A stretch of 64,000 bases of DNA from Candidatus Nomurabacteria bacterium (lineage in GTDB: Bacteria; Patescibacteriota; Minisyncoccia; Phycocordibacterales; UBA9973): positions 146,400 to 210,399 of the forward strand of contig JAPLXQ010000010.1 in NCBI GenBank assembly GCA_026395995.1, written 5' to 3'. The notes beneath the pieces are model-generated. The model saw nothing but the letters and a program-made list of their open reading frames with translations. It was not told where the DNA came from and ran no database searches. Positions 12,607-52,986 of this stretch are shown in pieces (the first letter of the stretch is position 1; each line of letters begins with the position of its first letter). Made by a program: the position numbers and the translations under genes.

Positions 12607-12612
12607 AACACA

Positions 12613-12691
12613 ACCCCTCCCGACCTCCCCTTATCAAGGGAGGAGGAAATGCTAAGCCTTTAATTCCCCCTGACAAGGGGGTTAGGGGGTT
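12613..12691. repeat. degenerate copy of the GC-rich compound palindromic element (intergenic, after rpoD)
   Basis: cccctcccgacctccccttatcaagggaggagg and ccccctgacaagggggttaggggg hairpins resemble the right arm of the uvrA/uvrB/uvrC copies. Confidence 0.5.
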
Positions 12692-22905: not shown

Positions 22906-22928
22906 ATTTATTTTTTAATTAATATTAA

Positions 22929-23636: not shown

Positions 23637-23820
23637 GTATTTATATCTGTTTAATTTATAATTAATAATTTACCTTACGACTTAAACAGGCTATTTTAAA
23701 AGCCTATTATTCATCTAGAAAAGAAAAACCCATCTCTAGACAGGTGTTTGTATATTAGCAGTAATTTTAATTTTTTGCAAATTTCCCGAGGTTTTGCAAA
23801 GCTTAAGTTTTTAGGGTAGT

Positions 23821-25080: not shown

Positions 25081-25082
25081 AA

Positions 25083-26129
25083 ATGTTAAAAAAATTTTAC
25101 AAAATGTTTTCAAATGATATCGGTATCGACCTCGGCACAGCAAATACGCTCGTGTATTTAAAAGGGCAGGGTATCGTGATCAATGAACCTTCTGTCGTAG
25201 CTGTGAATGTGAAGACGAATCAAGTTCTCGCTGTCGGTGCGCAAGCAAAACAAATGCTTGGTAGAACACCAGGGCATATTCGCGCCGTGCGTCCACTCGT
25301 AGATGGAGTTATTTCTGATTTCGAAGTTACAGAAGAAATGCTTTCATATTTGATAAATAAAGCAGACAAAATGTCTAAAAAGTTTTTGCGTCCTCGTGTT
25401 GTCATCGGTGTTCCTTCTGGAACTACAAATGTCGAAACTCGTGCTGTCTATGATGCAGCGAAGTCTGCCGGAGCGAGAGAAGTATTTTTGGTAGAGGAGC
25501 CGATGGCTGCAGCTATCGGAATTCGTTTACCTATCAAGGACCCAGTAGGTTCTATGATTATCGATATCGGTGGAGGGACTACAGATGTCGCCGTTATATC
25601 GCTCGGTGGAATCGTGAAATCTAGAAATTTAAAAATCGCTGGAGATAAATTGAACAACGATATCATCTCATATATGCGTGATGAATTTAAACTTTTGATT
25701 GGTGAGAAAACAGCCGAAGGTGTCAAGATTGCTATTGCTTCTGCAATGCAAGGGGAATATATGGAAAGTTATGTTCGTGGACGAGATTTACTCACAGGGC
25801 TTCCTAGAGAAGTAGTCGTGACTGATTCAGATATTCGTGAAGCTATTGGATCTTCTGTAGCTGAGCTTGTCGATGGTGTAAAAGATATATTGGAAACTAC
25901 TCCACCAGAAATTCTTTCAGATATCATGCGTGGCGGTGTAGTGCTTTCTGGTGGTGGAGCATTACTACACGGTCTTGATAGTCTTTTGCAAAATGTTTTG
26001 AAAATACCAGTATATGTTGTCGATGATCCACTTTCAGCTGTGGCTCGTGGTACAGGAATTATTTTAGATGATATAGAAAATTATCGTGAAGTATTAATCG
26101 GCAATCAAGATGAGCTACCTCCTAGATAA
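25083..26129 (+). CDS. mreB: rod shape-determining protein MreB
   Basis: DIGIDLGTANTLVY, actin-fold motifs, GGGALL. Confidence 0.95.
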   Translation: MLKKFYKMFSNDIGIDLGTANTLVYLKGQGIVINEPSVVAVNVKTNQVLAVGAQAKQMLGRTPGHIRAVRPLVDGVISDFEVTEEMLSYLINKADKMSKKFLRPRVVIGVPSGTTNVETRAVYDAAKSAGAREVFLVEEPMAAAIGIRLPIKDPVGSMIIDIGGGTTDVAVISLGGIVKSRNLKIAGDKLNNDIISYMRDEFKLLIGEKTAEGVKIAIASAMQGEYMESYVRGRDLLTGLPREVVVTDSDIREAIGSSVAELVDGVKDILETTPPEILSDIMRGGVVLSGGGALLHGLDSLLQNVLKIPVYVVDDPLSAVARGTGIILDDIENYREVLIGNQDELPPR

Positions 26130-26901
26130 AAATAAAAAAACAAAAAAGTATAAAAAAATTGGAGCAATAGTTTTTCTAGCTATTGTTTTAGTTTATTTTC
26201 GTGCCCCAGTTTGGAAAGGTTTATCTGTCTCTACTCATACGATTTTTAAACCAGTAATAGTTTTTGGACAATTTATCGGTGGAGGCTTTTCAAATATTGG
26301 TGTAAATTTTCGTTCTAAAAAAGCTCTCGTCACAGAAAATGAAAATTTGAAAAATCAAATTACAGAAAGTGAGGCTGATAGAGCGAACTATGCATCTGTC
26401 GTCGATGAGAATAATAAAATGAAAGAAATTCTTGGTAGAAAAGCTGAAAATATGAAAGTCGTTTTGGTGGGAATTTTAGAAAAACCAAATCGTTCTTTGT
26501 ATGATACTTTAGTGATAGATGCAGGGAGTAATCAAGGAGTAAAAATCGCGGATAGAGTTTTTGCAATTGGGAATATTCCTATCGGGCGCGTGGCTGAAGT
26601 TTATTTAAATTCTTCAAACGTAATTTTATTTTCAAATCCAGAAGAAAAGACTGATGTCGTACTTTCAGGCAAAGATGGATTCTTGCAAGCTGTCGGCCGT
26701 GGGGGAGGAAATTTTGAAATAATTTTGCCTAAGGATTTAGTGATAGCTGTCGGTGCAGAAGTTGATTTACCGGGCATTACGCCTTATATATTAGGCACAG
26801 TCGCGACGCTTGTTTCCGATCCACGTGATTCTTTTCAGAAAGCGATTTTGGTGAGTCCTGTGAATATTCAGCAACTTAAATTTGTAGAAGTAGAAATTTA
26901 A
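26110..26901 (+). CDS. mreC: rod shape-determining protein MreC
   Basis: Position after mreB, N-terminal TM helix, coiled-coil, beta-rich C-terminal domain. Confidence 0.7.
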   Translation: MSYLLDKNKKTKKYKKIGAIVFLAIVLVYFRAPVWKGLSVSTHTIFKPVIVFGQFIGGGFSNIGVNFRSKKALVTENENLKNQITESEADRANYASVVDENNKMKEILGRKAENMKVVLVGILEKPNRSLYDTLVIDAGSNQGVKIADRVFAIGNIPIGRVAEVYLNSSNVILFSNPEEKTDVVLSGKDGFLQAVGRGGGNFEIILPKDLVIAVGAEVDLPGITPYILGTVATLVSDPRDSFQKAILVSPVNIQQLKFVEVEI

Positions 26902-28212
26902 ATGAATTTTAAAATAGAAAAAAAGTTAGCAAATACTTTAGGCAGAGTTGGAATTTTATCAACTCCACACGGAGATATTTTAACTCCTGCTTTTGTGACT
27001 GTCGGTACGAAGGCGACCGTGAAATCTCTCACACCAGAAGCGGTGAGTGGTGCTGGTGCGCAAGTCGTCCTCGCGAATACTTACCATTTATTTTTACAAC
27101 CAGGGGATGAGGTTGTGGCAAAAGCTGGAGGCCTAGGCAAGTTTATGAATTGGAGTGGTCCTACGATGACAGACTCAGGAGGATTCCAAGTTTTTTCTCT
27201 CGGTGCTGCGTATGGAAAAGATATTTCAAAAGTAGTAAAAATTACTGATCCGTCGCTCATGATTCCTGAGCGTTTCGATGATAGTGATGCACCGCGCCTC
27301 GCGAAGATCGGCAATGATGGAGTGTCTTTCAAGTCGCATCTCGATGGTTCGATTCATTACATCACTCCAGAGAAATCAATCCAGATTCAGCACAACCTCG
27401 GTGCGGATATTATTTTTGCATTTGATGAATGCACTTCTCCGGCAGAGGAGATCAAATACCAAGAAGAAGCTCTCTCTCGCACTCATGCTTGGGCGAAGAG
27501 GAGTTTGGAAGAGCATATAAAATTGGAAGAGGCGAAGAATTTTCTTCCTCCCCTTCGCCAAGGGGAGGACCGAGGTGGGGTGTTGAATCAGCACCCCCTC
27601 CCAACCTCCCCCTTAGCAAAGGGGGAGGAGAAATTCCCCCAAGCCCTCTTCGGCATCGTCCAAGGCGGTCGCGAAGAAGATCTAAGAAAAAAATCCGCGC
27701 AAATTATTTCTGAAATGGAAGTGGACGGCAAGAAATTCGACGGCTTCGGTATTGGGGGAAGTTTTGCAAAAGAAGATATGGCGACAGCGGTAAAATGGTG
27801 CAATGAAATTTTGCCAGAAGAAAAACCTCGCCACCTCCTCGGCATCGGCGAGCCGGAAGATTTATTTATGGGTATTGAAAATGGTGTAGATCTTTTTGAC
27901 TGTGTCATCCCGACCCGCCTCGGCAGAAACGGCACTATCTATACAAAGACAGGGAAGATAAGTATTACAAATACAAAATTCCGTGAAGACTTTACACCAA
28001 TAGAAGCCGACTGTGAATGTTATACTTGTAAAAATTATACCAAAGCCTACATCGCACACCTTTTCCATGGCAAAGAAATGCTCGCGGGTACTTTGGCTTC
28101 TACTCACAACCTCCACTTCATCGTCTCCCTTGTCGCCAACATCCGCCAAAGTATTTTAGATGATAAATTTGAAGAATTTAAGGATGAATTTTTAAATATG
28201 TATAAAGCTTAA
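26902..28212 (+). CDS. tgt: queuine tRNA-ribosyltransferase, carrying an in-frame ~32-aa insertion encoded by a palindromic element
   Basis: TPAFVTVGTKATVK, LFGIVQGG, zinc site CxCxxC...H at the C-terminus. Insert LPPLRQGEDRGGVLNQHPLPTSPLAKGEEK. Confidence 0.9.
   Translation: MNFKIEKKLANTLGRVGILSTPHGDILTPAFVTVGTKATVKSLTPEAVSGAGAQVVLANTYHLFLQPGDEVVAKAGGLGKFMNWSGPTMTDSGGFQVFSLGAAYGKDISKVVKITDPSLMIPERFDDSDAPRLAKIGNDGVSFKSHLDGSIHYITPEKSIQIQHNLGADIIFAFDECTSPAEEIKYQEEALSRTHAWAKRSLEEHIKLEEAKNFLPPLRQGEDRGGVLNQHPLPTSPLAKGEEKFPQALFGIVQGGREEDLRKKSAQIISEMEVDGKKFDGFGIGGSFAKEDMATAVKWCNEILPEEKPRHLLGIGEPEDLFMGIENGVDLFDCVIPTRLGRNGTIYTKTGKISITNTKFREDFTPIEADCECYTCKNYTKAYIAHLFHGKEMLAGTLASTHNLHFIVSLVANIRQSILDDKFEEFKDEFLNMYKA
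27546..27630. repeat. GC-rich compound palindromic element, in-frame inside tgt
   Basis: cctcccc-ttcgccaa-ggggagg / ggggtgttgaatcagcacccc / ctccccc-ttagcaaa-gggggag; same architecture as the uvr copies. Confidence 0.7.
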
Positions 28213-28224
28213 TATAATAAATAT

Positions 28225-28839
28225 ATGGAAATTTTTTTAATTAAAGGTCTAATAATTGGTTTTTCTATAGCAGCTCCTGTCGGGCCTATTGGTATTTTGT
28301 GTATTCAGAGAACCATTAATTATGGAAGAAAATCAGGATTATTCACCGGTTTTGGTGCAGCAACAGCTGACGGTCTATATGGTGCTGTGGCTGCTTTTGG
28401 TTTGACAATTATTTCAAATTTTTTAGTCGGACAACAGTTTTGGTTTAGGTTAATCGGAGGTTTATTTCTGCTTTATTTAGGTATCAGAACTTTTGTGTCT
28501 AAACCAAAAGAAAAAACAAAGAAAGATAACCATAAAAGTTTATTTTCAGATTATTTTTCTACAATTTTTCTTACACTTACAAACCCAATGACAATTTTAT
28601 CTTTTGTTGCTATTTTTGCAGGGCTAGGACTCGGTAGCATAAAAGGAGATACATCATCAGCACTTTTTATGACAATAGGAGTATTTATTGGTTCAGCTAT
28701 TTGGTGGTTAATTTTGAGTGGAGGAGTTAGTCTTTTAAAAACAAAATTTAATACTTCTTCATTAAAAATTGTAAACAAAATTTCTGGAATAATTTTAGTG
28801 ACTTTTGCAATTTTATCTTTTTTAAGTATTTTTAAATAA
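28225..28839 (+). CDS. LysE/RhtB-family amino-acid exporter
   Basis: ~200 aa, 6 TM helices, N-terminal GxxxGFxxAxPxGP motif. Confidence 0.7.
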   Translation: MEIFLIKGLIIGFSIAAPVGPIGILCIQRTINYGRKSGLFTGFGAATADGLYGAVAAFGLTIISNFLVGQQFWFRLIGGLFLLYLGIRTFVSKPKEKTKKDNHKSLFSDYFSTIFLTLTNPMTILSFVAIFAGLGLGSIKGDTSSALFMTIGVFIGSAIWWLILSGGVSLLKTKFNTSSLKIVNKISGIILVTFAILSFLSIFK

Positions 28840-28960
28840 TTTTGTTACGAAAAAATCCTCACTTAACTCTTAAAATTATAGATGAGATATTACCAATGAT
28901 ATTTGACACTAAGTTAGTCTTGTGCTAATTTAAAGATAAATTACAGTTCATCGTATTTAT

Positions 28961-29111
28961 TCCGGATTAGCTCAGCTGGTTAGAGCGCCTGACTGGATAA
29001 GTTTTGTAGATTTAGTAAGTTAGTTCGAAATAATTTATTAAACTCTTTCTTGGTTTACCAAGGCAACCTTATTTTATCAGGAGGTCATGGGTTCAAGTCC
29101 TTTATCTGGAG
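28961..29111 (+). tRNA. tRNA gene interrupted by a ~77-84-nt AT-rich insertion in the anticodon loop. D-arm, variable loop and T-arm resemble tRNA-Ile
   Basis: Acceptor TCCGGAT/ATCTGGA, D-arm GCTCAGCTGGTTAGAGC, anticodon stem CCTGA...TCAGG separated by 84 nt, variable loop AGGTC, T-loop TTCAAGT. The isotype cannot be fixed by eye. Confidence 0.5.
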
Positions 29112-29133
29112 CGGAATATCAAATTTTATTAAG

Positions 29134-29168
29134 AGCACTAAACTTTTTATGTTTAGTGCTTCTTTTTT
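29134..29168 (+). terminator. rho-independent terminator after the tRNA
   Basis: agcactaaac-ttttta-tgtttagtgct then tctttttt. Confidence 0.5.
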
Positions 29169-29200
29169 GTCTTTTTGAGTTAGGACTAATATATAAATAA

Positions 29201-29231
29201 AAAAGCGTTTCAGAAATTTCTGAAACGCTTT
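29201..29231. terminator. perfect 13-bp-stem palindrome, bidirectional terminator
   Basis: aaaagcgtttcag-aaatt-tctgaaacgctttt; it terminates the minus-strand ORF that ends at 29252. Confidence 0.5.
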
Positions 29232-29251
29232 TACAACAAAAATTTGTTGTT

Positions 29252-29551
29252 TTAATTTTGTGGCACAGGCATTGGTACTGCTGAAGTAATAAAACGGTCA
29301 CTAACTTCTCCATTTTCGTGCGCACGACCAGTTTTTGCCTCAAAAGAATCTTTTAATGCTTGACCTAATCTTTTGTACAACTCTAGCTCTGTTTCGTTGT
29401 CGTCACTAGAGATTTCAATACAGTGAACCTCACAATGATTAAGTAGGCCTTCTTGCCCATACAGATCTACTTTTTCTGTAATTGAATTTTTGTAAAAGTC
29501 ATTTAGTTTCACTGTGTAATAGCCACATACTAAAAAATAGAATTTTTTCAT
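29252..29551 (-). CDS. hypothetical protein
   Basis: ORF track only. Confidence 0.3.
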   Translation of the reverse strand: MKKFYFLVCGYYTVKLNDFYKNSITEKVDLYGQEGLLNHCEVHCIEISSDDNETELELYKRLGQALKDSFEAKTGRAHENGEVSDRFITSAVPMPVPQN

Positions 29552-29676
29552 TTTTATTATTGATTTGTGAAAGAGCCATTTCTGGATTTCCGATTAATAC
29601 TGAATTTCTGAATTAGAATTATATTATATACCTTTTATTTAACTTTGTCAATTCTAATTAATTTTGCTATAGTGTA

Positions 29677-31884
29677 TTGGTGTTTAATAATAAATTCAAA
29701 ATCAAATCAGATTTCAAACCAGCAGGCGACCAGCCGAAGGCTATAAAGGCGCTTGTGGAAGGGTTGAAGAAGGGAATGAACAAGCAGACATTGCTCGGGG
29801 TTACGGGTAGTGGCAAGACTTTTACTGTGGCGAATGTGATCCAAAGTATACAGAAGCCGACGCTCATTATTGCGCACAATAAAACCCTCGCAGCTCAGCT
29901 CGCGCAGGAGTTCAAAGAATTCTTTCCGGAAAATGCGGTGCATTATTTCGTCTCCTATTACGACTACTACCAGCCGGAAGCTTACATGCCGACGACGGAT
30001 ACCTATATCGAAAAAGACGCGCAGATCAACAAAGAGATTGATCGTCTTCGTCATGCGTCTACGCAAGCTTTGCTCACGAGAAGTGATGTGATTATCGTAG
30101 CATCGGTGTCTTGTATTTACGGTCTCGGAAGTCCTGAAGAATACAAGGAGGAAAATTTGCATTTAGATGTCGGGATGAAAATGGATAGAAAAGAACTCGT
30201 GGAGAAATTGGTGAAAGTGCATTTCGAGAGGACGAATGCGGATTTGGAGCCGGGGAATTTCCGCGCGATAGGGAACATCATCGAAGTCATGCCGATATCA
30301 GAAACTTTTGTATATCGAATTGAGATTGGAACCCCCTCTCTAAAATCTTCAAATTTTGGAGAGGGGGCGGGGGGTGAGGGGAATTGTATTTCTAGTATCA
30401 CAAAAATAGATCCAGTGTCTTCTAAAATTCTTGCCGAAGAGCAAATGATTTTTATTTTTCCAGCGAAGCATTTCATTACGACGACAAAAGGCAGAGACAG
30501 TGCAATAAAATCTATTAAAAAAGAACTCGCAGATCAGCTCAAGAAATTCGACAAAGAAGGCAAGCTCCTCGAAGCGGAAAGATTAAAGAGGCGCACGACA
30601 TATGACCTCGCGATGATTCGCGAAGTCGGGTATTGTTCTGGAATTGAAAATTATTCTCGCCATTTGTCTGGTAAGGCTGTCGGTGAAGCACCGGAAACAT
30701 TGCTTTCATATTTCCCAAAGGATGCAAAAGGTAATCCTGATTTTTTGACTATCATCGACGAATCCCATGTCTCTATTCCGCAAATCGGGGGAATGTTTGC
30801 AGGGGATCAATCTAGAAAAAATACACTTGTCGAGCACGGTTTTCGTTTACCGAGTGCAAAAGATAACAGGCCATTAAAATTTCCAGAATTTTTAGAACGC
30901 GTCGGACAAATGATTTACACTTCTGCGACCCCGGCAGATTATGAACGAAAAGAAAGTAATCAGATAGTCGAGCAGGTTATCCGTCCGACAGGTTTGCTTG
31001 ATCCTGAAGTAGAAATAAGGCCAATTTTAGCTTCGAGTTCCTTTCCCCCTTCGCTAAGGGGGAAAATGAAAGGGGGTGTTGAATCAGAGCACCCCACCCC
31101 AACCCTCCCCTTGGCGAAGGGGAGGGAGAAATCTTACCCCGGTCAAATTCAAGATTTCATTTCCGAGGCAAAAAAGGAAATCAAAAATGGTCGCCGAGCG
31201 ATTGCGACGACACTTACGAAGAAAATGGCAGAAGATTTATCTGAATATTTAAAGAAAGAGGGAATCAAGGCAGAATATTTACATAGTGATATAAAAACGA
31301 TTGAGAGAATAAAAATTCTGACAGAATTTCGTCGGGGTGCTTTTGATATTATTGTCGGGGTGAACTTACTTCGTGAAGGTTTGGATTTACCAGAAGTTGG
31401 TTTGATAGGAATACTCGATGCCGACAAAGAAGGATTTTTGCGAAGTGAGACGGCACTTATTCAAACTATTGGCCGTGCGGCGAGAAATTCTGCTGGACGA
31501 GTTATTTTATATGCGGACAATATGACAGGTTCGATGGAGCGAGCATTACGAGAGACAAATCGTCGTCGTGCATTACAAATTGCTTATAATAAAAAAAATG
31601 GCATTACTCCTAAAACTATTTTGAAAGCTATCAAAGATATCACACAGGGGATGGATACACTCCATGACAAAGCTGTGCGTTCCGAGCTCGAACTCGATAC
31701 GAAACTTTTTGCAAAGAATCCAAATAAATTAATTAAAATAAAAGAACAAGCAATGAATGAAGCAGTAAAAATGCTCGACTTTGAGACTGCAGCAATCCTT
31801 CGCGATGAGATTAAAATCTTGAAATCTCGACCAGTGCCGGTAGTAGAACCTAAAGGTATTCCTAGGGTAAAGAAGACAAAGTAG
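29677..31884 (+). CDS. uvrB: excinuclease ABC subunit B, with two in-frame palindromic-element insertions
   Basis: GVTGSGKTFT Walker A, DESHVSIPQ, helicase motifs, C-terminal UVR domain (AAILRDEIKILK). Inserts TPSLKSSNFGEGAGGEGNC and SSSFPPSLRGKMKGGVESEHPTPTLPLAKGREKSYP. Confidence 0.92.
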   Translation: MVFNNKFKIKSDFKPAGDQPKAIKALVEGLKKGMNKQTLLGVTGSGKTFTVANVIQSIQKPTLIIAHNKTLAAQLAQEFKEFFPENAVHYFVSYYDYYQPEAYMPTTDTYIEKDAQINKEIDRLRHASTQALLTRSDVIIVASVSCIYGLGSPEEYKEENLHLDVGMKMDRKELVEKLVKVHFERTNADLEPGNFRAIGNIIEVMPISETFVYRIEIGTPSLKSSNFGEGAGGEGNCISSITKIDPVSSKILAEEQMIFIFPAKHFITTTKGRDSAIKSIKKELADQLKKFDKEGKLLEAERLKRRTTYDLAMIREVGYCSGIENYSRHLSGKAVGEAPETLLSYFPKDAKGNPDFLTIIDESHVSIPQIGGMFAGDQSRKNTLVEHGFRLPSAKDNRPLKFPEFLERVGQMIYTSATPADYERKESNQIVEQVIRPTGLLDPEVEIRPILASSSFPPSLRGKMKGGVESEHPTPTLPLAKGREKSYPGQIQDFISEAKKEIKNGRRAIATTLTKKMAEDLSEYLKKEGIKAEYLHSDIKTIERIKILTEFRRGAFDIIVGVNLLREGLDLPEVGLIGILDADKEGFLRSETALIQTIGRAARNSAGRVILYADNMTGSMERALRETNRRRALQIAYNKKNGITPKTILKAIKDITQGMDTLHDKAVRSELELDTKLFAKNPNKLIKIKEQAMNEAVKMLDFETAAILRDEIKILKSRPVPVVEPKGIPRVKKTK
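30331..30381. repeat. GC-rich palindromic element (variant family) in-frame in uvrB
   Basis: ccccctctc-taaaatcttcaaattttg-gagaggggg followed by cggggggtgagggg. Confidence 0.55.
31039..31127. repeat. GC-rich compound palindromic element in-frame in uvrB
   Basis: tccccc-ttcgctaa-ggggga / gggggtgttgaatcagagcacccc / ctcccc-ttggcgaa-ggggag; near-identical to the 33506 and 37543 copies. Confidence 0.75.
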
Positions 31885-31963
31885 TTTCCTTGACTTTTTA
31901 TCTTATACATGCTATTCTTTAATTAGAAATTAATGTACAAATAAACTTAAATTAAAACAAAAT

Positions 31964-32257
31964 ATGAGTGCAGACAATAAAAGTAACATCTTGCAGACAA
32001 AATCTAAAGATGGTGGCTCTGAATTTAGAGTTGAGTGTATCCAAAATTCAGAAAGAATTACAGATAATCCGGATACCAAAGATGGTTTTAACAACGAAGC
32101 CGTTCTTAAAATTTTTGGTGAATCAAAAGTTTTCACTAAAGAATCTGACGCTTGGCGTGAAGCATTCAAAATTGAAGACGAAATGGGTGGTTCGGAGTAT
32201 GGAGCAGTGAGACTTGATTTCTCGCATCTTCCGTTTCCGGAAAAGGTTCTTGTCTAA
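31964..32257 (+). CDS. hypothetical protein
   Basis: ORF track; followed by a terminator. Confidence 0.3.
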   Translation: MSADNKSNILQTKSKDGGSEFRVECIQNSERITDNPDTKDGFNNEAVLKIFGESKVFTKESDAWREAFKIEDEMGGSEYGAVRLDFSHLPFPEKVLV

Positions 32258-32280
32258 AAGTATTGCTGTAAAAAGCAAAA

Positions 32281-32307
32281 GTCCTGTAGTAATACAGGAC
32301 TTTTTTA
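32281..32307 (+). terminator. rho-independent terminator
   Basis: gtcctgta-gtaa-tacaggac then ttttttat. Confidence 0.55.
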
Positions 32308-32390
32308 TTTACTAATATGTGCTATAGTATTCTCACAAATTAATATATAAACCCCAAGGGCAAACCAAGGGGTGTTTCGGAGTTTTGGGT

Positions 32391-32478
32391 TCCTCCTCCC
32401 ATTAGCTAAGGGGAGGAATGAGGTGGGTGTTGAATTTTGCACCCCCTCCCAACCTCCCCCTTGGCGAAGGGGGAGGAG
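32391..32478. repeat. GC-rich compound palindromic element in the uvrA 5' leader, ending 10 nt before the ATG
   Basis: tcctcctccc-attagctaa-ggggaggaa / gtgggtgttgaattttgcacccc / ctccccc-ttggcgaa-gggggag. Confidence 0.7.
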
Positions 32479-32488
32479 AATAAATACA

Positions 32489-35191
32489 ATGAAAAACAAT
32501 AAAGAAGAAAAAATAATAGTGCGTGGAGCTAGGACTCACAATTTGAAAAATATTACTGTGGAAATGCCACGTAATAAGATGATTTGTATTACCGGTATGT
32601 CTGGATCAGGAAAATCATCTCTCGCTTTTGATACTATTTTCGCCGAAGGGCAACGACGATATGTGGAATCTCTTTCTTCATATGCGCGACAATTTCTAAA
32701 ACAAATGGCAAAGCCCGATGTGGATGAAATCGAAGGTTTGAGTCCTGCTATTTCTATTGATCAAAAATCTCGCTCAAATAATCCACGTTCTACTGTCGCG
32801 ACTATTACGGAAGTGTATGATTACCTCCGTGTTTTATATTCTCGTATTGGTAAACCTCACTGTCTCGAATGTGGCACAGAAATAAAAAAACTTTCGAATG
32901 AAGAAATTATGAATTTCGTTAAAGAAAAAGCGGAAAGTTTTTTAGCAAGTGGCAAGAAAAAAGAAGTTATGGGTGTGAATTGGACAGAAGTAAATATTAA
33001 AATTTTTGCTCCTGTCGTGCGTGGAAGAAAAGGGGAATATTATCAATTACTCTATGACTTACTCGGTAAAGGTTATGCGAAAGTTCGCATTAATGGAGAA
33101 ATAAAAAATCTTCGCGATAGAATCGATCTCGCAAAAACAAAGAAGCATGACATTGATGTTTTAGTAGATGAAATAACTTTTCACAAAGTAAAAGACAAAA
33201 GTGAAGATGAAAATATGCGTTTGTTTGAAGCGGTTGAAAGAGCGTTACTTGAAAGTGATGGACTCGTAAGTATCACATACAACGATGTCGAATCAGTTTT
33301 TTATTCTGCGAAATTTTCTTGTCCAAATGATGGCTTTTCTTTCCCAGAGGTAGAACCTCGTCTTTTCTCTTGGAACAGTCCGTATGGAGCTTGTGAGACG
33401 TGTCACGGCCTCGGAACCAAGCATATGTTTGGTGATGACCCTTGTGATGCTTGTAAAGGTTTACGACTTCGCCCTGAAGCTTTACATGTTTATATTGAAG
33501 CGGATTCCTTTCCCCCTTCGCTAAGGGGGAAAATGAAAGGGGGTGTTGAATCAGAGCACCCCACCCCAACCCTCCCCTTAGCGAAGGAGAGGGGGAACTC
33601 AAAGACTTGTCGTATGAACATTATCGAAGCAATCTCACTTTCTGCCGAAGATGCTTTTGAATTTTTCGGTTCATTAAAACTTTCTAAAAAAGAAGAAGAA
33701 ATTTCTGGTGTCTTGATGAAAGAAATTTTGTCGCGTATTGAATTTTTGCTCAATGTCGGTCTCGAATATATTTCTCTCGATCGTCGTGCAAATACACTTT
33801 CAGGTGGAGAAGCACAACGCATCCGCCTCGCTTCACAGCTCGGCTCACGACTCGTGGGAACTTTGTATGTACTCGATGAGCCGACGATTGGTCTACATCA
33901 ACGCGACAATGAAAGACTTATAAAAACTCTCGAAGATTTGCGTGACCTTGGTAATACTATCATCGTTGTTGAACACGACGAAGACACTATTTATGCTTCC
34001 GATTATATTATTGACATCGGTCCAAAAGCCGGTGTGCATGGGGGCAATGTCATTGTCGCAGATGATTTAGAAAAACTTTTATCTGCACCAAAAAATACTT
34101 CAAAGTCTCGCACTCTCGGATACCTCCGTGGAGAAATAAAAATAGAAATTCCAGAGAAGAGACGAACTTCAGAAAAGGGTAGTATAAAAATAGTTGGTGG
34201 AAAAGTTTTTAATATAAAAAATTTGAATGCAGAAATTCCACTCGGCAAACTCGTATCTATCACTGGCGTTTCTGGTTCTGGTAAAAGTTCTTTTATGTAT
34301 GAAATTTTGCATAAAAATTTACAAGGCCGACTCGAGAGAAAATACCGCACGAATGAAGTCTACAACTGCGCGTCATTTTCAGGATCTGAATATATTAGTC
34401 GTGTTGTGCTAATTGACCAATCAGCTATCGGACGCACACCACGCTCGAATTTGGCGACTTATACAGGTGCTTTTACCTATATCCGAGAACTCTTTGCCGA
34501 GACCGAAGAAGCTCGTTTTCGTGGATGGAAATCAAATAGATTTTCTTTTAATGTATCTTCAAAGACTGGTGGGGGACGATGTGAAGCATGTGAAGGTAAT
34601 GGTGAAATAGCTGTTGAAATGCATTTCTTGCCGACTGTGTACGTGACTTGTGATGTGTGTATGGGCAAGCGTTTTGATAAAGAAACTCTAAAAGTAAAAT
34701 ATAAAGGAAAAAATATTTATGAAGTTTTGAAAATGACTGTCGAAGAAGCTTTTACATTTTTCGAAGATATTCCAAATGTGTTTGACCGTGTGAAAACTTT
34801 AATGGATGTCGGCCTCGGCTATGTCGAGCTCGGTCAAAGTGCGACGACGCTCTCGGGCGGAGAAGCACAGCGCGTAAAAATCTCGAGCGAACTCTTTCGT
34901 CCGTATCTAGAAAAAACAATCTACCTACTCGACGAGCCGACTGTTGGGCTTCATTATGATGATGTGCAAAATTTAATTAATGTATTAAATCGCCTCGTAG
35001 ACAAAGGCAACACCGTCGTCGTCATTGAACACAATATGGATCTTATAAAATCTGCGGATTATCTCCTCGACTTTGGTCCTGAAGGTGGTGCAAATGGGGG
35101 AACATTGATTGCAAAAGGAACTCCAGAAGAAGTTGCTAACACTCCGAAAAGTTATACTGGGAAATATCTTAAAAAAGTTTTGAGGAAATAA
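32489..35191 (+). CDS. uvrA: excinuclease ABC subunit A, with an in-frame palindromic-element insertion
   Basis: Start set at ATG 32489 (MKNNKEEKIIVRGARTHNLKN, canonical UvrA N-terminus). Two ABC modules (GMSGSGKSSL, GVSGSGKSS; LSGGEAQR x2), zinc fingers. The longer ORF from 32372 reads through the upstream repeat and is rejected. Insert FPPSLRGKMKGGVESEHPTPTLPLAKERGNS. Confidence 0.9.
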   Translation: MKNNKEEKIIVRGARTHNLKNITVEMPRNKMICITGMSGSGKSSLAFDTIFAEGQRRYVESLSSYARQFLKQMAKPDVDEIEGLSPAISIDQKSRSNNPRSTVATITEVYDYLRVLYSRIGKPHCLECGTEIKKLSNEEIMNFVKEKAESFLASGKKKEVMGVNWTEVNIKIFAPVVRGRKGEYYQLLYDLLGKGYAKVRINGEIKNLRDRIDLAKTKKHDIDVLVDEITFHKVKDKSEDENMRLFEAVERALLESDGLVSITYNDVESVFYSAKFSCPNDGFSFPEVEPRLFSWNSPYGACETCHGLGTKHMFGDDPCDACKGLRLRPEALHVYIEADSFPPSLRGKMKGGVESEHPTPTLPLAKERGNSKTCRMNIIEAISLSAEDAFEFFGSLKLSKKEEEISGVLMKEILSRIEFLLNVGLEYISLDRRANTLSGGEAQRIRLASQLGSRLVGTLYVLDEPTIGLHQRDNERLIKTLEDLRDLGNTIIVVEHDEDTIYASDYIIDIGPKAGVHGGNVIVADDLEKLLSAPKNTSKSRTLGYLRGEIKIEIPEKRRTSEKGSIKIVGGKVFNIKNLNAEIPLGKLVSITGVSGSGKSSFMYEILHKNLQGRLERKYRTNEVYNCASFSGSEYISRVVLIDQSAIGRTPRSNLATYTGAFTYIRELFAETEEARFRGWKSNRFSFNVSSKTGGGRCEACEGNGEIAVEMHFLPTVYVTCDVCMGKRFDKETLKVKYKGKNIYEVLKMTVEEAFTFFEDIPNVFDRVKTLMDVGLGYVELGQSATTLSGGEAQRVKISSELFRPYLEKTIYLLDEPTVGLHYDDVQNLINVLNRLVDKGNTVVVIEHNMDLIKSADYLLDFGPEGGANGGTLIAKGTPEEVANTPKSYTGKYLKKVLRK
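33506..33596. repeat. GC-rich compound palindromic element in-frame in uvrA
   Basis: Same three-hairpin sequence as 31039 and 37543. Confidence 0.75.
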
Positions 35192-35222
35192 AAAAGGAAA
35201 CAACATTGTTGTTTCCTTAATC
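35190..35222. terminator. bidirectional hairpin terminator between uvrA and a small minus-strand ORF
   Basis: ggaaacaacattgttgtttcc flanked by A-run and T-run. Confidence 0.45.
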
Positions 35223-35401
35223 TAAAATCTTGGTTTCCCAAATTCTTTCATTACCCAAGTAAGATGACTTGCTTCTTTATTGCACTTAATTTTACTGCCA
35301 GTAAAGACAGTTTTACCATCTGACCTTTTTACTTCGTGTTTGATAATTTTCTTACCAGAACGACTAAAAATTGGTTTTACTTCATAAGTTATATCTCCCA
35401 T
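35222..35401 (-). CDS. small basic hypothetical protein (59 aa), not in the ORF track
   Basis: My translation of the minus strand: MGDITYEVKPIFSRSGKKIIKHEVKRSDGKTVFTGSKIKCNKEASHLTWVMKEFGKPRF; sits between two terminator hairpins. Confidence 0.3.
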   Translation of the reverse strand: MGDITYEVKPIFSRSGKKIIKHEVKRSDGKTVFTGSKIKCNKEASHLTWVMKEFGKPRF

Positions 35402-35538
35402 TTTTTATTGTTATTAAATTAATACTATTATTTATTTCACTCAATATGATACTATCAAATCTATGCAAAGTCAAGAATTAAAAAAACTCAATATCCCAGA
35501 AAAGCCAGAGGTGTATTTATATAAAATAATAAGCCAGT

Positions 35539-36084
35539 TTGGTGATAGCATACATGGCTTTTGTTTGTTATAATAAAAACATGAAAAAAGAAATTAAAAA
35601 TGGAATTCGTGGCCAGATCTTTGAGCAACTTTCAAAATCACAATTTAAATATAAAGGTGTACCTGTAAATTTCTTTGGTTTACCAACTTTTTGTTCTTCA
35701 AAACCTCGCACACTTGTCTCTAATGAACTTTCAAGAATGAAAAGATTGGGTTTAATTGAGAAGAACGGGGAATTTTTACAAATTACAAATAAAGGCAAGG
35801 ATTACATAAAACGTCGCCAAGAAAGACTTTCTGTTTTTTATTTTACTTTTCAAAAATCTGCACCTAAAAATCTAATAGTCATGTTTGATATTCCAGAAGG
35901 TAAAAAAGCAGAAAGGGAATGGTTTAGATTTCATTTAAGAAGGTTTGACTATATTATGGTTCAAAGGTCGGTATGGGTCGGTCCATCACCTTTACCAAAA
36001 GATTTTCTAAAATATATAGAAGAAATTAATTTAAAGGATTGTATAAAAACTTTTAAACTAGCGAAAGGATATAAACCTCAATAG
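35539..36084 (+). CDS. PaaX-like regulator: winged-helix N-terminus plus Cas2-like (PaaX_C-like) C-terminal domain
   Basis: wHTH-like LSRMKRLGLIEKNGEFLQIT. C-terminus NLIVMFDIPEGKKAEREWFRFHLRRFDYIMVQRSVWVG has the Cas2/PaaX_C pattern. The true start may be the internal Met at 35581. Confidence 0.45.
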   Translation: MVIAYMAFVCYNKNMKKEIKNGIRGQIFEQLSKSQFKYKGVPVNFFGLPTFCSSKPRTLVSNELSRMKRLGLIEKNGEFLQITNKGKDYIKRRQERLSVFYFTFQKSAPKNLIVMFDIPEGKKAEREWFRFHLRRFDYIMVQRSVWVGPSPLPKDFLKYIEEINLKDCIKTFKLAKGYKPQ

Positions 36085-36185
36085 AAAATATACAAGCTTA
36101 CTTTGCTATCGCTATGTTAGCTTATTAGATTAAAATAGTTATTTTTCTAAAAGTTATACTAGAAAATATTTGAAAAAGGTTTTAA

Positions 36186-36216
36186 GGAAATAAAAAAAGG
36201 GAACTTGGTAGTTCCC
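36186..36216 (-). terminator. rho-independent terminator for the minus-strand ORF 36223-36633
   Basis: gggaactaccaagttccc then tttttttatttcc on the minus strand. Confidence 0.5.
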
Positions 36217-36222
36217 TTGAAT

Positions 36223-36633
36223 TTAGATTTTTGCAAAAGCTTTTTTTAGAATTTTCTTTTCATCTTCGTTTCCTTTTAAGGCAATGAATTCCTCGAGTTT
36301 TTTCATTATTTCTAATTCTCTTGTTTTGCATTGCTTGATTTTTTTTATAAAAAATCCTTTAAAACAAAAAATCAAGAAAAATAGTAAGAAAGTTCCCAAA
36401 AATATACTAAATTGTGTAAGTATATTAGGTATGCGTTGGGCGATTAAAAATGCGATTATTCCTGCCACCATAGAAGATGATAAAATACCGAACTTGCTCA
36501 TGATTTTTTCAAAGTTAATCTTTTCAGATTCTTTTATTAAATCAAAAAGTTCTGCACCAACTTTTGTTTTTTTAAGCTCTTCGAGCTCACGTTCTTTGTA
36601 GCCTTCTGCTCGGCCTGTGTCGTACTGATTCAT
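36223..36633 (-). CDS. hypothetical membrane protein
   Basis: Two TM helices in the middle. Confidence 0.3.
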   Translation of the reverse strand: MNQYDTGRAEGYKERELEELKKTKVGAELFDLIKESEKINFEKIMSKFGILSSSMVAGIIAFLIAQRIPNILTQFSIFLGTFLLFFLIFCFKGFFIKKIKQCKTRELEIMKKLEEFIALKGNEDEKKILKKAFAKI

Positions 36634-36738
36634 TTTTTTTGGTATTAAATTGTTTATGTGCAGAAGCTCTAGGACTTCTGCTTGAATTAGTGAAGCAGAC
36701 TAGATGCTTTTATTTAAAATTATGATACTATGTAGCGT

Positions 36739-38118
36739 ATGCAAAGTCAACCCCAAAAAATCGCTCTGCTCTCACGGGGCAGGGAATTAAAAAAAACTAT
36801 ATTACCAGATAAACCCGGTGTTTATTTTTTTATGCGTGGCAAGGATATTTTATATATCGGAAAGGCGACGAGTTTGAGGGATAGAACAAAGAGCTACTTC
36901 GGTAAAGATTTAATAAATACTCGCGGACCGTTGATATTGGATATGGTTTTTAAGGCGGATGGACTGAAGTGGCAGGAGACTGACACCGTTTTGGAAGCGC
37001 TTATTTTAGAAGCGAATCTGATAAAGAAACATCAGCCGTATTACAATACGAAAGAGAAGGATGACAAGAGTTTTAATTATGTTTGTATAACCCGCCCGCT
37101 AACGCCTGAGCGTAGCGATGGCGGGCGGGCTAAAGATGAACTTCCAAAAGTTTTAATTGTTCGTGGTAGAAATCTAAATATACGCCATGGCGTATATTCT
37201 AAAATTTATGGGCCTTTTCCAAATGGCGGGCAATTGAAAGAAGCTTTACGGTTGATAAGAAAAATATTTCCATTCTTGGATGAAAAATCTCGCATTCAGG
37301 GAACGTATGAATTCTATAAGCAGATCAAACTCATTCCAGAACAAAAGGAAATGCTTTTCCAAAATATAAAAAATATTAAACTTCTTTTTGAAGGTAAGAA
37401 AAAATCAATATTAAAAAATTTAGAAAAAGAAATGAAAATGTATGCGAAAGCACATTCGTTTGAAAAAGCAGGGGAAATAAAAAGACAGATTTTTGCCTTG
37501 CAACATATTCAAGATGTGTCGCTGATTAAAGAGGAATTTAATTCCTTTCCCCCTTCGCTAAGGGGGAAAATGAAAGGGGGTGTTGAATCAAAGCACCCCA
37601 CCTCAATCCTCCCCTTGGCGAAGGGGAGGAGGAACTCAAATGCATTTCGCATTGAAGCATACGACATCGCACATATGTCCGGCCAAAATATGGTGGGTGT
37701 GATGGTGGTACTCGAAGATGGTGAAATTGCGAAAAATGAATATAGAAAATTTATTATCAAAGGTTTTACTAATTCAAATGATGTGGGGGCATTGGCAGAA
37801 GTTCTTACTCGTCGATTCAAACACACTGAATGGAGGAATCCTGACTTGATAGTTGTCGACGGAAGTACAGCACAGCTAAATGTCGCAAAGAAAATTTTGA
37901 AAGAATACAAACTAGAAATTCCTATTTCTGCAGTAGTAAAAGACGATAGACATAAAGCCAAGATGATATTAATGCCAAATTCACCTCACCCCAACCCTCT
38001 CCTTGTAAAGGAGAGGGAGAAGTCTCTTAAAAAAGATATATTGCTCTCAAACAGTGAAGCACATCGATTCGCTATTACATACTATCGTCAAAAAAGTAGA
38101 AAAAATATGTTAAAATAA
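36739..38118 (+). CDS. uvrC: excinuclease ABC subunit C (short form), with in-frame palindromic-element insertions
   Basis: GIY-YIG N-terminus (KPGVYFFMRGKDILYIGKATSLRDR), UvrC homology region, RNase-H-like endonuclease domain (RIEAYDIAHMSGQNMVGVMVV). No C-terminal HhH seen. Insert FPPSLRGKMKGGVESKHPTSILPLAKGRRNS. Confidence 0.85.
   Translation: MQSQPQKIALLSRGRELKKTILPDKPGVYFFMRGKDILYIGKATSLRDRTKSYFGKDLINTRGPLILDMVFKADGLKWQETDTVLEALILEANLIKKHQPYYNTKEKDDKSFNYVCITRPLTPERSDGGRAKDELPKVLIVRGRNLNIRHGVYSKIYGPFPNGGQLKEALRLIRKIFPFLDEKSRIQGTYEFYKQIKLIPEQKEMLFQNIKNIKLLFEGKKKSILKNLEKEMKMYAKAHSFEKAGEIKRQIFALQHIQDVSLIKEEFNSFPPSLRGKMKGGVESKHPTSILPLAKGRRNSNAFRIEAYDIAHMSGQNMVGVMVVLEDGEIAKNEYRKFIIKGFTNSNDVGALAEVLTRRFKHTEWRNPDLIVVDGSTAQLNVAKKILKEYKLEIPISAVVKDDRHKAKMILMPNSPHPNPLLVKEREKSLKKDILLSNSEAHRFAITYYRQKSRKNMLK
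37091..37130. repeat. second, different GC-rich palindrome in-frame in uvrC
   Basis: cccgcccgc-taacgcctgagcgtagcgat-ggcgggcggg encodes PLTPERSDGGRAK in an otherwise AT-rich gene. Confidence 0.4.
37543..37632. repeat. GC-rich compound palindromic element in-frame in uvrC
   Basis: Near-identical to the 31039 and 33506 copies. Confidence 0.75.
37981..38020. repeat. half-copy (right arm) of the palindromic element in-frame near the uvrC C-terminus
   Basis: cacctcaccccaaccctctcc-ttgtaaa-ggagaggg resembles caccccaccccaaccctcccc-ttggcgaa-ggggaggg. Confidence 0.5.
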
Positions 38119-38122
38119 AAGT

Positions 38123-39064
38123 ATGATAAAAGTCGGCATATTGCGTGGTGGAATAGGAGAAGATTATTTTGAATCTCTAGAAAAAGGAGGAGAAATTATT
38201 TCTTATATTCAGGAAAATTTTCCTGATAAATTTCAACCTATAGATATTTTAGTAGACAGAGAAGGTGTTTGGCATTATCGTGGTCTACCTGTTTTACCAA
38301 TAGATTTAAAAAATAAAGTAGACATTGTTTGGCACACAGGATCATTTGATGGAAAAAATATTTTAGAAAATATTTCTATACCACATATTTCTGATGCTGG
38401 ATTTGGTTCTTCTGTAACAAAAGACAGATCTATTTTAGAGCGCCATATGGCAAATCTTGGAATTAAAATATCTAAGCACGTTGTTTTACCAGCTTATAAT
38501 TTTGAATTTGATGGGCCGGTAGATAAATATTTTATGAAGAAAGCAATGCAAATTTTTGAAAAATTCTCTTCACCTTGGACAGTGAAAAGTTTTACACCTG
38601 ATAGTTCGCTAGGAATACATATTGCAAAGACTTTTCCAGAACTTGTACAAGCTCTTACAGAAATTGCTCAAAGTGGAAAAAGTATTTTAGTCGAAGAATT
38701 AATAGCAGGGAAGAAGGCATCAGTACACTCACTCTCAAATTTTCGAGGAGAAAAAATCTACTCTTTTCCACCTATTGAACATCGAAATGGTGAAGTATTT
38801 GCTCCTGGTAATTTTTCTCAATCTGAAAAAGAAGAAATGCTTTCGTTGGTGAGAGATATTTTTTCACATATGAGTGCAGAGCATTATATGCAGTCAGACT
38901 TTGTGATTCAACCAAATAGAGGTATCATTCTAACCAATGTCACATTTATTCCTGATTTTAAAAGCAACTCACCTTTTTCACGGTCTACCGATGCTGTGGG
39001 TTCGACTACTGCATCTGTTTTTGAACAGATAATAAATAATACATTGAATAAAAGTTTGCAATAA
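38123..39064 (+). CDS. ddl: D-alanine--D-alanine ligase-like ATP-grasp enzyme
   Basis: N-terminus MIKVGILRGGIGEDYFESL resembles Ddl (KIGVLFGG.S.EHEVSL); ATP-grasp length. The substrate is uncertain. Confidence 0.6.
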   Translation: MIKVGILRGGIGEDYFESLEKGGEIISYIQENFPDKFQPIDILVDREGVWHYRGLPVLPIDLKNKVDIVWHTGSFDGKNILENISIPHISDAGFGSSVTKDRSILERHMANLGIKISKHVVLPAYNFEFDGPVDKYFMKKAMQIFEKFSSPWTVKSFTPDSSLGIHIAKTFPELVQALTEIAQSGKSILVEELIAGKKASVHSLSNFRGEKIYSFPPIEHRNGEVFAPGNFSQSEKEEMLSLVRDIFSHMSAEHYMQSDFVIQPNRGIILTNVTFIPDFKSNSPFSRSTDAVGSTTASVFEQIINNTLNKSLQ

Positions 39065-41320: not shown

Positions 41321-41692
41321 TTGAAAATACCCTTTTGTTTGTTATTGGCTTGGGTACTCTGTGCATTTTGTGCTCAGAGCACCCAAGCCAAAAGCTCAAA
41401 AACGGGGATAAAAATGAAAAATATATGTATTTTATTATTGAGTATTATCTTAGGAGTACTCACAAGTTGTGATGGTATTCCACAAAATGGTGCACAAATT
41501 ATTTCAGGTAAAGGATCTGACACTCTTAAGATCCCAACCCAGGAGGGAAGTATTATAGAAAGTATTAATAATGTAGGTAATAGTGTTTCTATTAAATACA
41601 AAAATATTACTTCAAATTCTTCCTTTACCAAGGAATATTTTAAAACTGCTTTCATGAGTAAATCAGGAGATCAGTATGTAATTAAATTTTAA
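41321..41692 (+). CDS. small secreted protein / probable lipoprotein (lipobox LTSC if started at the internal Met at 41411)
   Basis: Two in-frame hydrophobic leaders; MKNICILLLSIILGVLTSC fits a lipoprotein signal. Confidence 0.4.
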   Translation: MKIPFCLLLAWVLCAFCAQSTQAKSSKTGIKMKNICILLLSIILGVLTSCDGIPQNGAQIISGKGSDTLKIPTQEGSIIESINNVGNSVSIKYKNITSNSSFTKEYFKTAFMSKSGDQYVIKF

Positions 41693-52984: not shown

Positions 52985-52986
52985 TT

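Follow-up and report, generated by a model that had tools for sequence, protein, structure and literature searches.

Why should copies of one palindromic element crowd into the genes of nucleotide excision repair (NER)? The question is raised by a 64,000-nucleotide (nt) stretch of a Candidatus Nomurabacteria genome (assembly GCA_026395995.1, contig JAPLXQ010000010.1, positions 146,400–210,399 of the forward strand), hereafter the window, in which a sequence-only reading had noted insertions in uvrA, uvrB and uvrC, one more in the uvrA leader and one in tgt. The concentration is real in this lineage: six of the eight loci counted here fall in uvrABC and the uvrA leader, which make up 10% of the window, and the insertion hot spots of UvrB recur in relatives. 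A restriction to NER genes, however, does not hold, as tgt is hit alike and other host genes occur in related bacteria. Comparison with sister genomes makes it probable, if far from certain, that uvrA, uvrB, uvrC and tgt offer a few permissive hot-spot sites at which triplex-type elements turn over.

Palindromic elements concentrate in uvrA, uvrB, uvrC and tgt

The window belongs to an AT-rich genome (GC content ~32%), and its UvrB (734 amino acids, aa) and RpoC are exactly identical to MCX6755425.1 and MCX6755404.1, both encoded on the 287-kb contig. Element copies were sought by repeat finding, with an nhmmer profile made from the copies, and with a triplex-module finder that demands a homopyrimidine/homopurine hairpin together with a mirror third strand. 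All seven copies of the earlier reading proved real, five as full copies of 105–117 nt and two as single-module half copies; an eighth locus, directly past the rpoD stop, had been overlooked (Table 1). The five full copies were matched by nhmmer with E-values of 1e-30 to 1e-38 and the uvrC half copy (37978–38026) with 5e-7. The second uvrB copy, a single module with another hairpin and no nhmmer match, is supported by the module finder and by alignments with PDB and sister sequences; relative to PDB UvrB it adds 16 aa to the UvrB_inter domain. In total, the module finder called 13 modules in the 64 kb, each with at most one mismatched triplet, all of them within element copies and none elsewhere, and the hairpin core matches the window five times, against zero expected from shuffles. 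As had been claimed, no copy lies in rpoB, rpoC, mreB or copA, and none was found in dnaG, mreC or the rest of the window; window scans of the rpoD coding sequence revealed no comparable insert, the nearest copy being the one just past its stop.

Under uniform placement, the finding of six of the eight loci in uvrABC plus leader has P = 2.4e-5, a value that is post hoc and treats as independent events that may not be so; seven of the eight are in uvrABC plus tgt (P = 2.6e-6). Seven of the eight loci also lie within 11.2 kb, a segment of which the host genes make up 69%, and the placement of all seven in host genes there is not significant (7/7, P = 0.07).

UvrB allowed the comparison to be widened. 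Among its 120 closest homologs (at least 68% identity), 51 carry an internal insert of at least 8 aa, vs 2 of 120 RpoC homologs (Fisher P = 6e-16), where the largest insert measures 10 aa. Residues ~217 and ~450, hot spots that are filled in many Paceibacteria, account for nearly all UvrB inserts, and many of these inserts are unrelated sequences that resemble translated palindromes. In one sister genome (L128), uvrA and uvrC are not adjacent to uvrB, yet UvrB site 2 holds the same doublet; UvrB is therefore a recurrent host independent of the chromosome segment.

Outside the window, hosts sampled without regard to uvr genes include rsmI (L060), ileS (L075) and a prmC-like methyltransferase gene (L028) in Patescibacteria, and an mnmA-like gene, a gene for a T9SS-tail protein and a cheA-like gene in other phyla. 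In-frame triplex-type inserts were seen at L060 328–3101, L075 2–2596 and in L028 (minus-strand open reading frame (ORF) of 326 aa), with peptides such as APSPLSLSRRGVGGEV and HLTPSPLSLIRRGVGERS; atpD of L060 also has an in-frame GC-rich insert, not called by the module finder. In other low-GC genomes, 34 of 37 hairpin sites are outside long ORFs, so that the coding fraction there is 3/37 vs 6/8 in the window (P = 2.5e-4). The earlier suggestion that the concentration reflects chance in a larger family is partly right, the element belonging to the very widespread BoxC/triplex-motif class; the concentration goes beyond regional clustering.

Shared codon sites hold different palindromic families in sister genomes

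Three sister genomes with conserved synteny were compared, L126, L127 (with L129) and L128. A comparison of uvrABC among sisters had been proposed as a check; the insert sites do recur, but at many of them the families differ or the inserts are absent. Across tgt, uvrB, uvrA and uvrC there are about 15 indel blocks of at least 4 aa, of which at least 10 are GC-rich or palindromic and differ among genomes. In the same sister alignments, the aminoacyl-tRNA synthetase (aaRS) gene, mreB, mreC, ddl, rpsB and tsf have no indel of at least 4 aa, and gap columns number zero in rpoB and rpoC, four in rpoD and 12 in dnaG; altogether, ten neighboring control genes have no comparable inserts in the sister genomes.

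The occupants of single sites show the turnover directly. At the tgt site, L127 and L128 have no insert and L126 has a different, 60-nt palindrome; the AAGGCAAGACC...GGTCTTGCCTT family of L126 sits in tgt and uvrA exactly at the triplex-doublet sites of the window. The module of uvrB site 1 is common to the window and L126 and absent from L127 and L128. At UvrB site 2, L126 has a GGATTGG...CCAATCC element, L127 has no insert, and L128 has an element of the window's own family that is 84.8% identical between flanking coding DNA of 71.5–75% identity, so that this insertion is either old or re-seeded. The uvrA copy is orthologous in L127 (94.5% identical, flanks 88–92%). UvrC site 3 (37536–37653) is without insert in L127 and holds a diverged three-hairpin element in L126, which also has a GAGAAGTTTCA...TGAAACTTCTC element at UvrC site 4, and the post-rpoD locus is absent after rpoD in the sister locus L129. 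Copies present in one sister are missing from another, and other Patescibacteria hold them in unrelated contexts; they are therefore mobile or, at the least, subject to gain and loss.

Insert families also recur between sites. The NHHLALKGTPPQKGG family was seen at UvrB site 2 of P0009 and at UvrC site 3 of L126 (16698–16784), and the peptide LRRSHSVLEGQ at UvrB positions ~352 and ~452 (P0019/P0040 and P0003/P0008).

Purifying selection on the host genes is very strong outside the inserts. When the window is compared with L127, the ratio of non-synonymous to synonymous substitution rates (dN/dS) is 0.027 in uvrA, 0.049 in uvrB, 0.075 in tgt and 0.107 in uvrC, and 0.10–0.115 in rpoB/rpoC. Relaxed selection on the NER genes is rejected by these values (dN/dS 0.03–0.11). 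Synonymous divergence (dS) is 0.45 for uvrA and 0.63 for uvrB, and 0.74–1.37 elsewhere. Identity to the sisters is a mosaic across 22129–39064, with UvrA at 98.3%, UvrB at 96.1%, RpoB/RpoC at 88–89%, EF-Ts at 70% and the aaRS at 71%, and ddl of L126 is only 37% identical. The mosaic identities and the low dS suggest frequent recombination or gene replacement between lineages, which fits the reported instability of TM loci and the variable gene content between the uvr genes of the sisters.

Table 1 Host genes and inserted elements, with positions counted from the first letter of the window
Feature	Position	Strand	Remarks
tgt	26902–28212	+	436 aa; fourth host gene
uvrB	29680–31884	+	ATG 29680 fits MCX6755425.1; mechanical ORF begins at TTG 29677
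uvrA	32489–35191	+	900 aa from ATG 32489; without canonical insertion domain
uvrC	36739–38118	+	459 aa; GIY-YIG, UVR motif and RNase H-like domains; without (HhH)2 tail
Post-rpoD locus	12612–12690		Tail-to-tail module pair around mini-ORF ATGCTAAGCCTTTAA; directly past rpoD stop
tgt full doublet, subfamily A	27541–27642 (nhmmer match 27532–27636)	+	In frame; encodes FLPPLRQGEDRGGVLNQHPLPTSPLAKGEEKFPQ
uvrB hot spot 1, single triplex module	30328–30378	+	CCCCCTCTC-N18-GAGAGGGGG-C-GGGGGGTGAG; in frame
uvrB hot spot 2, full doublet, subfamily B	31033–31149	+	After residue 450, between RPILA and YPGQ; encodes SSSFPPSLRGKMKGGVESEHPTPTLPLAKGREKS
uvrA 5' leader, full doublet, subfamily A	32379–32485	+	Found by nhmmer and module finder
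uvrA full doublet, subfamily B	33500–33616	+	In frame; encodes ADSFPPSLRGKMKGGVESEHPTPTLPLAKERGNSKTCRM
uvrC full doublet, subfamily B	37536–37653	+	In frame; between UVR motif and RNase H-like endonuclease domain
uvrC single module	37975–38026	-	CCCTCTCC-TTTACAA-GGAGAGGG-TTG-GGGTGAGGTG; in frame, endonuclease-domain loop
uvrC 11-aa GC-rich insert, other family	36751–36783	+	Non-triplex type; after codon 4; absent in both sisters
uvrC GC-rich hairpin insert, other family	37091–37134	+	CCCGCCCGC-N21-GCGGGCGGG; in frame; relative in L127, none in L126

Coding copies keep the reading frame

Every coding copy has a length that is a multiple of three and is free of stops, and the encoded peptides are related, with SFPPSLRGKMKGGVESEHPTPTLPLAKGR in one orientation and FLPPLRQGEDRGGVLNQHPLPTSPLAKGE in the other. 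Because just one of the three frames of subfamily B is open on the + strand, its copies are read in the same frame in uvrA, uvrB and uvrC. The inserts are predicted to be translated as Pro/Gly/Ser/Lys-rich loops of roughly 11–39 aa, ~16 aa for single modules; GGVESEHPTPTLPLAK is an example of such a predicted peptide. The uniform frame and openness of the inserts make it unlikely that they are spliced from the RNA or bypassed in translation, and an assembly artefact was rejected, as the same inserts occur in independent sister metagenome-assembled genomes (MAGs).

By alignment with PDB structures, the coding copies are placed at predicted loops, turns or interdomain linkers. In UvrB these are residues 218–233 of the UvrA-interaction domain and an alignment gap past residue 450. 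In UvrA the site is past the second CxxC pair, where the doublet takes the place of the GGK turn in the canonical V-x-I-GGK-N segment, and in UvrC the sites are a loop of the RNase H-like domain and the linker that joins this domain to the UVR motif. An AlphaFold model of UvrB renders both inserts as coil with pLDDT below 50, in a model that is poor overall (mean pLDDT 57).

In this behavior the copies recall the Rickettsia palindromic elements (RPEs), in-frame palindromic elements described by Ogata et al. (2000), with 44 insertions in R. conorii (review PMC10969869). Both are palindromic repeats of ~100–150 nt in a small AT-rich genome that lie in frame in genes for conserved proteins, encode a conserved peptide and are present or absent among close relatives; as in RPEs, the insert positions in the window may suit the protein fold. 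Unlike RPEs, whose hosts are unrelated metabolic genes, the window elements occupy four genes, the same codon sites are reused by different families, and their module is of triplex type; the kinship is one of behavior, and none of sequence is expected.

The NER proteins of the window lineage are also structurally reduced. In UvrA, ~13 residues separate two CxxC pairs, between which solved UvrAs hold an insertion domain of ~130 aa; UvrC is 459 aa long in the window and 404–443 aa in the sisters, and its (HhH)2 C-terminal domain was not detected.

The elements are built from BoxC/PIT/TMECO-type modules

The unit of all copies is a module of 35–47 nt, made of a pyrimidine arm, a loop (8 nt in the full copies), a complementary purine arm, a 3–5-nt loop and, as mirror image of the purine arm, a G/T(A) strand, as in TCCTCCCC-TTCGCCAA-GGGGAGGA-CCGA-GGTGGGGTG. 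Three forms exist in the window, namely single modules, head-to-head inverted doublets and one tail-to-tail pair. A full copy is such a head-to-head doublet of two inverted modules, with a central stem formed by the facing G-rich third strands; in tgt, for example, the modules span 27546–27582 (+) and 27592–27628 (-). Purine arm and third strand co-vary, GGGGAGG occurring with GGTGGGG, GGGGGAAA with AAAGGGGG and GGAGAGGG with GGGTGAGG, as predicted by selection for mirror symmetry and hence for triplex potential.

Repeats of the BoxC/PIT/TM kind have been known for some 30 years, reportedly through work of Bachellier in the 1990s and of Hoyne and Maher in 2000, and to our knowledge their origin, mobilizing enzyme and role are unknown. 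Judged by core and module order, the window elements belong to this class of intrastrand triplex motifs (BoxC/PIT/TMECO), the triplex being a potential of the sequence. The uvrC single module matches the E. coli BoxC core GGAGAGGGTTAGGGTGAGGGG at 19 of 21 bases (GGAGAGGGTTGGGGTGAGGTG in the window), both have the order of pyrimidine arm, loop, purine arm, short loop and G/T mirror strand, and both are multi-copy, form inverted pairs, occupy variable loci and are distributed over many phyla. The TMECO/BoxC consensus CCCTCGCCCCTCCGGGGAGAGGGTTAGGGTGAGGGG has been described as a class II purine-motif intrastrand triplex (Holder et al. 2015, PMC4666352); MG1655 has 23 copies, always intergenic and with five inverted pairs, and TMECO occurs in more than 260 genomes, with an association to locus rearrangement and no mobile-element link found (PMC4666352). 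The window elements differ in three respects. Six of eight loci are in frame within conserved genes, whereas E. coli copies are always intergenic, a location that is a trait of the E. coli copies and not part of the structural definition; the doublets pair their third strands into a central stem; and in related genomes, in contrast to the missing mobile-element link of Holder et al., the modules form the terminal inverted repeats of cassettes with a DUF559 gene.

The distribution of the class was surveyed at several levels. In E. coli, the BoxC/TMECO repeat is found at a median of 19 places per genome (5,426 genomes). The 18-base hairpin occurs at at least 118 loci in 185,579 species genomes, with Planctomycetota, Geobacterales, Chloroflexota, Bacteroidota, Paenibacillus, Acinetobacter and Patescibacteria among the matches listed, and a family-specific 26-base pattern at seven metagenome loci. 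Patescibacteria alone yielded full-length doublet relatives (L064, Nomurabacteria; L085, Paceibacterota; L060, Minisyncoccia; metagenome loci L121 and L123), where they are intergenic or in no long ORF. A known RNA family was rejected as a candidate, since an Rfam search of the window at gathering thresholds returned tRNAs only.

Modules flank DUF559 genes in related genomes

DUF559 proteins have a Vsr-like PD-(D/E)XK fold and are not known as transposases. In L122, L125 and L075 (Saccharibacteria), modules were found in the opposite order around an ORF of 119–121 aa that matches Pfam DUF559 (E = 4e-33), with the layout CACCCCC...hairpin...GGAGG-N10-ATG...gene...hairpin...GGGGTG. Given this inverted flanking arrangement, the modules are the ~45-nt terminal inverted repeats of a DUF559 cassette, the upstream one also supplying the Shine-Dalgarno sequence. 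The elements themselves have terminal inverted repeats, as expected of a miniature inverted-repeat transposable element (MITE), a non-autonomous derivative of a transposon. The post-rpoD locus of the window aligns to the joined ends of the L125 cassette with only ATGCTAAGCCTTTAA remaining between them, and therefore looks like an internally deleted DUF559 cassette.

DUF559 genes adjoining such modules also occur in Draconibacterium and Acinetobacter, and E. coli ycjD, picked beforehand as a test, has a BoxC ~170 nt downstream (0.005 expected); ycjD (L130, K-12 NC_000913.3, 1351040–1351406) is the sole E. coli DUF559 gene looked at. A general link between DUF559 and the modules was rejected. 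Among 24 viral-contig loci selected for DUF559, five have a module within 300 nt, which is background (0.36 modules per kb near the gene vs 0.26 away); the 24 loci are mostly of one high-GC family. In two of them (L147 and L151, IMG/VR, high GC) inverted CCTCCCCCGCGATGCGGGGGAGG-type modules stand on either side of DUF559, an arrangement absent from the other 22. DUF559 may accordingly be named a candidate mobilizing enzyme, as a lead and not a finding. Among the papers searched that mention DUF559, none ties it to these repeats by title or abstract.

The arrangement resembles the REP/REPIN-RAYT system in that hairpin singlets and inverted doublets are dispersed and a small nuclease gene lies between inverted hairpins. 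Unlike that system, in which REPINs are extragenic, the flanked gene is DUF559 and not an HUH Y1 transposase (no RAYT gene is present in the window, and the repeat-flanked gene elsewhere is DUF559), and the DUF559 link is not general, the five of 24 loci being no more than background. That BoxC/triplex repeats are non-autonomous partners of DUF559 cassettes, analogous to REPINs and RAYT, and home to a few hairpin-marked sites in the excision-repair genes of Patescibacteria, whose pathway would otherwise deal with such structures, we regard as an improbable idea.

A triplex-type element lies in the uvrA leader

The sequence-only reading had preferred ATG 32489 over GTG 32372 as the start of uvrA, and rightly so, as the GTG ORF call runs through the leader copy. 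The alignment with PDB UvrA begins at residue 5, ATGAAAAACAA is conserved in the sisters, and a terminator (32277–32304) closes the gene upstream; we therefore place the uvrA start at ATG 32489.

The leader copy is strongly structured, as had been supposed (-71 kcal/mol, z = -4.5), and its last purine arm, GGGGGAGGAGA (32470–32479), provides the sole Shine-Dalgarno-like sequence, ~10 nt ahead of the ATG. A triplex-type element occupies the same leader spot in all three sisters, between a conserved extended -10 motif with a small hairpin and the ATG, and each of these elements supplies a GGAGG ~10 nt ahead of the start codon. In L126 and L127 it reads CCCCTCCCC-N17-GGGGAGGGG-TTA-GGGGTGGGG and in L127 it also precedes tgt. 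The arrangement, with a GGAGG from the module, is found before DUF559 genes and before uvrA and tgt in the sisters, and a similar, wider-spaced one before atpC (L060). The GGAGG would be sequestered by the CCUCC arm of the hairpin, and the element so probably sets a low or structure-dependent translation of uvrA.

The Correia element (NEMIS) offers a precedent, as it is reported to promote gonococcal uvrB transcription (PMC10969869). In both cases a MITE or putative MITE lies in the 5' region of an NER gene and provides expression signals. Correia elements, however, provide promoters and have a TA target-site duplication, whereas the window element provides a Shine-Dalgarno sequence inside a hairpin and lies downstream of the conserved extended -10 motif.

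Explanations for the concentration

The reading that we favor as somewhat probable is that of a few permissive sites with turnover: palindromic inserts would be repeatedly acquired, kept, swapped or lost at few positions that the proteins permit, and a hairpin already in place may draw further insertions or replacements. On the whole, the evidence does not seem to point to an NER-specific function. Such a function could take two forms, either triplex or hairpin copies in uvr genes attenuate NER and thereby protect the family, or insertion is coupled to repair synthesis or transcription. It would explain why six of eight loci are in uvrABC or the leader, why several unrelated palindromic families also lie within uvrA, uvrB and uvrC of the sisters, with the NHHLALKGTPPQKGG family seen once in UvrB and, in a second genome, in UvrC, and why the coding fraction is so much higher here than for the same hairpin in other low-GC genomes; in addition, NER is reported to process triplex structures (PMC5027492, PMC6011834). 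But tgt is struck likewise, related copies lie in rsmI, ileS, prmC-like and mnmA-like genes and most are intergenic, and atpD has its unclassified in-frame GC-rich insert. Moreover, purifying selection on the uvr genes is stronger than on rpoB/rpoC and the frame is preserved, so that NER is maintained and not disabled, and L127 does without inserts at uvrB site 2 and in uvrC. We therefore consider NER-specific targeting or benefit quite unlikely. Hardly a better prospect is regulatory domestication, in which a shared element would co-regulate uvrA, uvrB, uvrC and tgt as a cis signal with the leader copy as a translational switch. Here the regulatory capture proposed earlier is plausible for the leader, whose element type is kept in all three sisters, gives the Shine-Dalgarno sequence and is strongly structured, with the same module arrangement before DUF559, the wider-spaced one before atpC and the Correia case as precedent. 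The internal copies, however, differ or are absent among genomes with 97–98% identical UvrA, and copies that come and go between sisters are no conserved regulon signal; PIT/BoxC is also reported to show no promoter or terminator activity in E. coli (introduction of PMC4666352).

A regional accident, that is a local burst ("local hopping") or an unstable recombining segment that happens to hold the uvr genes, seems unlikely too. It agrees with the crowding of seven of eight loci in 11.2 kb, where their placement in host genes reached only P = 0.07, with a gene content between the uvr genes that differs in every sister and a duplicated junction with a PaaX/Cas2-like gene between uvrA and uvrC, with the lower dS of uvrA and uvrB, which suggests recent exchange, and with the rearrangement-prone TM loci of E. 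coli (PMC4666352). Yet the UvrB hot spots are filled in many lineages, and same-site inserts in dispersed uvr genes, which a regional cause would not produce, are partly seen already in L128; mreB, mreC, the aaRS gene and ddl adjoin the host genes and are insert-free in four genomes. Turnover at permissive sites has its own difficulties. The mapping of copies covered 64 kb of a 287-kb contig plus 84 kb from sister loci picked by way of uvrB and rpoC; most of the control genes are core genes with high expression, so that "tolerance" may mean mere expression level; and translation through the inserts as well as triplex formation are predictions from the sequence. A word-indexed protein search with the element peptide returned nothing and a HMMER search of 1.84 billion representatives five marginal hits, none usable; with a peptide that protein databases show in these genomes only, the in-frame family is a small one. 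When filled sites were compared with empty ones, no clear target-site duplication or target motif emerged, the linkers there being variable anyway, and the use of identical points by different families at five to six sites is hard to explain by tolerance alone and hints at a targeting or replacement mechanism.

Other features of the window

Between uvrA and uvrC, a segment of ~950 nt (35147–36750) is edged by two duplications, one of the uvrA 3' end (35147–35195/36149–36197, 88% identical) and one of the uvrC 5' end (35445–35474/36721–36750), and contains an ORF (35539–36084) with a PaaX central/Cas2-like domain; the segment looks like a cassette brought in by recombination at the junction. 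Upstream of uvrB, an Rfam tRNA call spans 151 nt (28961–29111) with an insertion of ~80 nt past the anticodon-loop region and no tRNA called by ARAGORN; this tRNA gene may hold an intron or be disrupted. An intergenic imperfect palindrome at 41327–41409 (39-nt arms, 77% complementary, 5-nt spacer) is unrelated to the triplex element. A high-GC block at 52500–54010 (60-nt windows up to 0.75), with long ORFs on both strands, spans the 3' end of a copA-like P-type ATPase gene and the next gene, of the DsbD_2 family, and may be foreign DNA. A direct repeat of 121 nt (13414–13534/13796–13916) is 89% identical, its copies 382 nt apart.

Implications

The elements are BoxC/triplex-motif repeats that behave like Rickettsia palindromic elements; same-site reuse by different families and the relation to DUF559 cassettes are not described in the literature searched. 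A module described as strictly intergenic is found in the window in frame in repair proteins of essential fold, in a reduced genome. For annotation, protein lengths in Patescibacteria MAGs are inflated by ORF extensions that stem from elements, as in uvrA, and by peptides of the same origin. The DUF559 gene is a concrete candidate partner, open to biochemical test, and if both the partnership and homing were true, the crowding of copies in uvrABC would reflect a host-element conflict under selection rather than tolerance alone. The reuse of codon sites by several palindromic families provides a natural system for the question that RPEs raise, how proteins tolerate selfish DNA.

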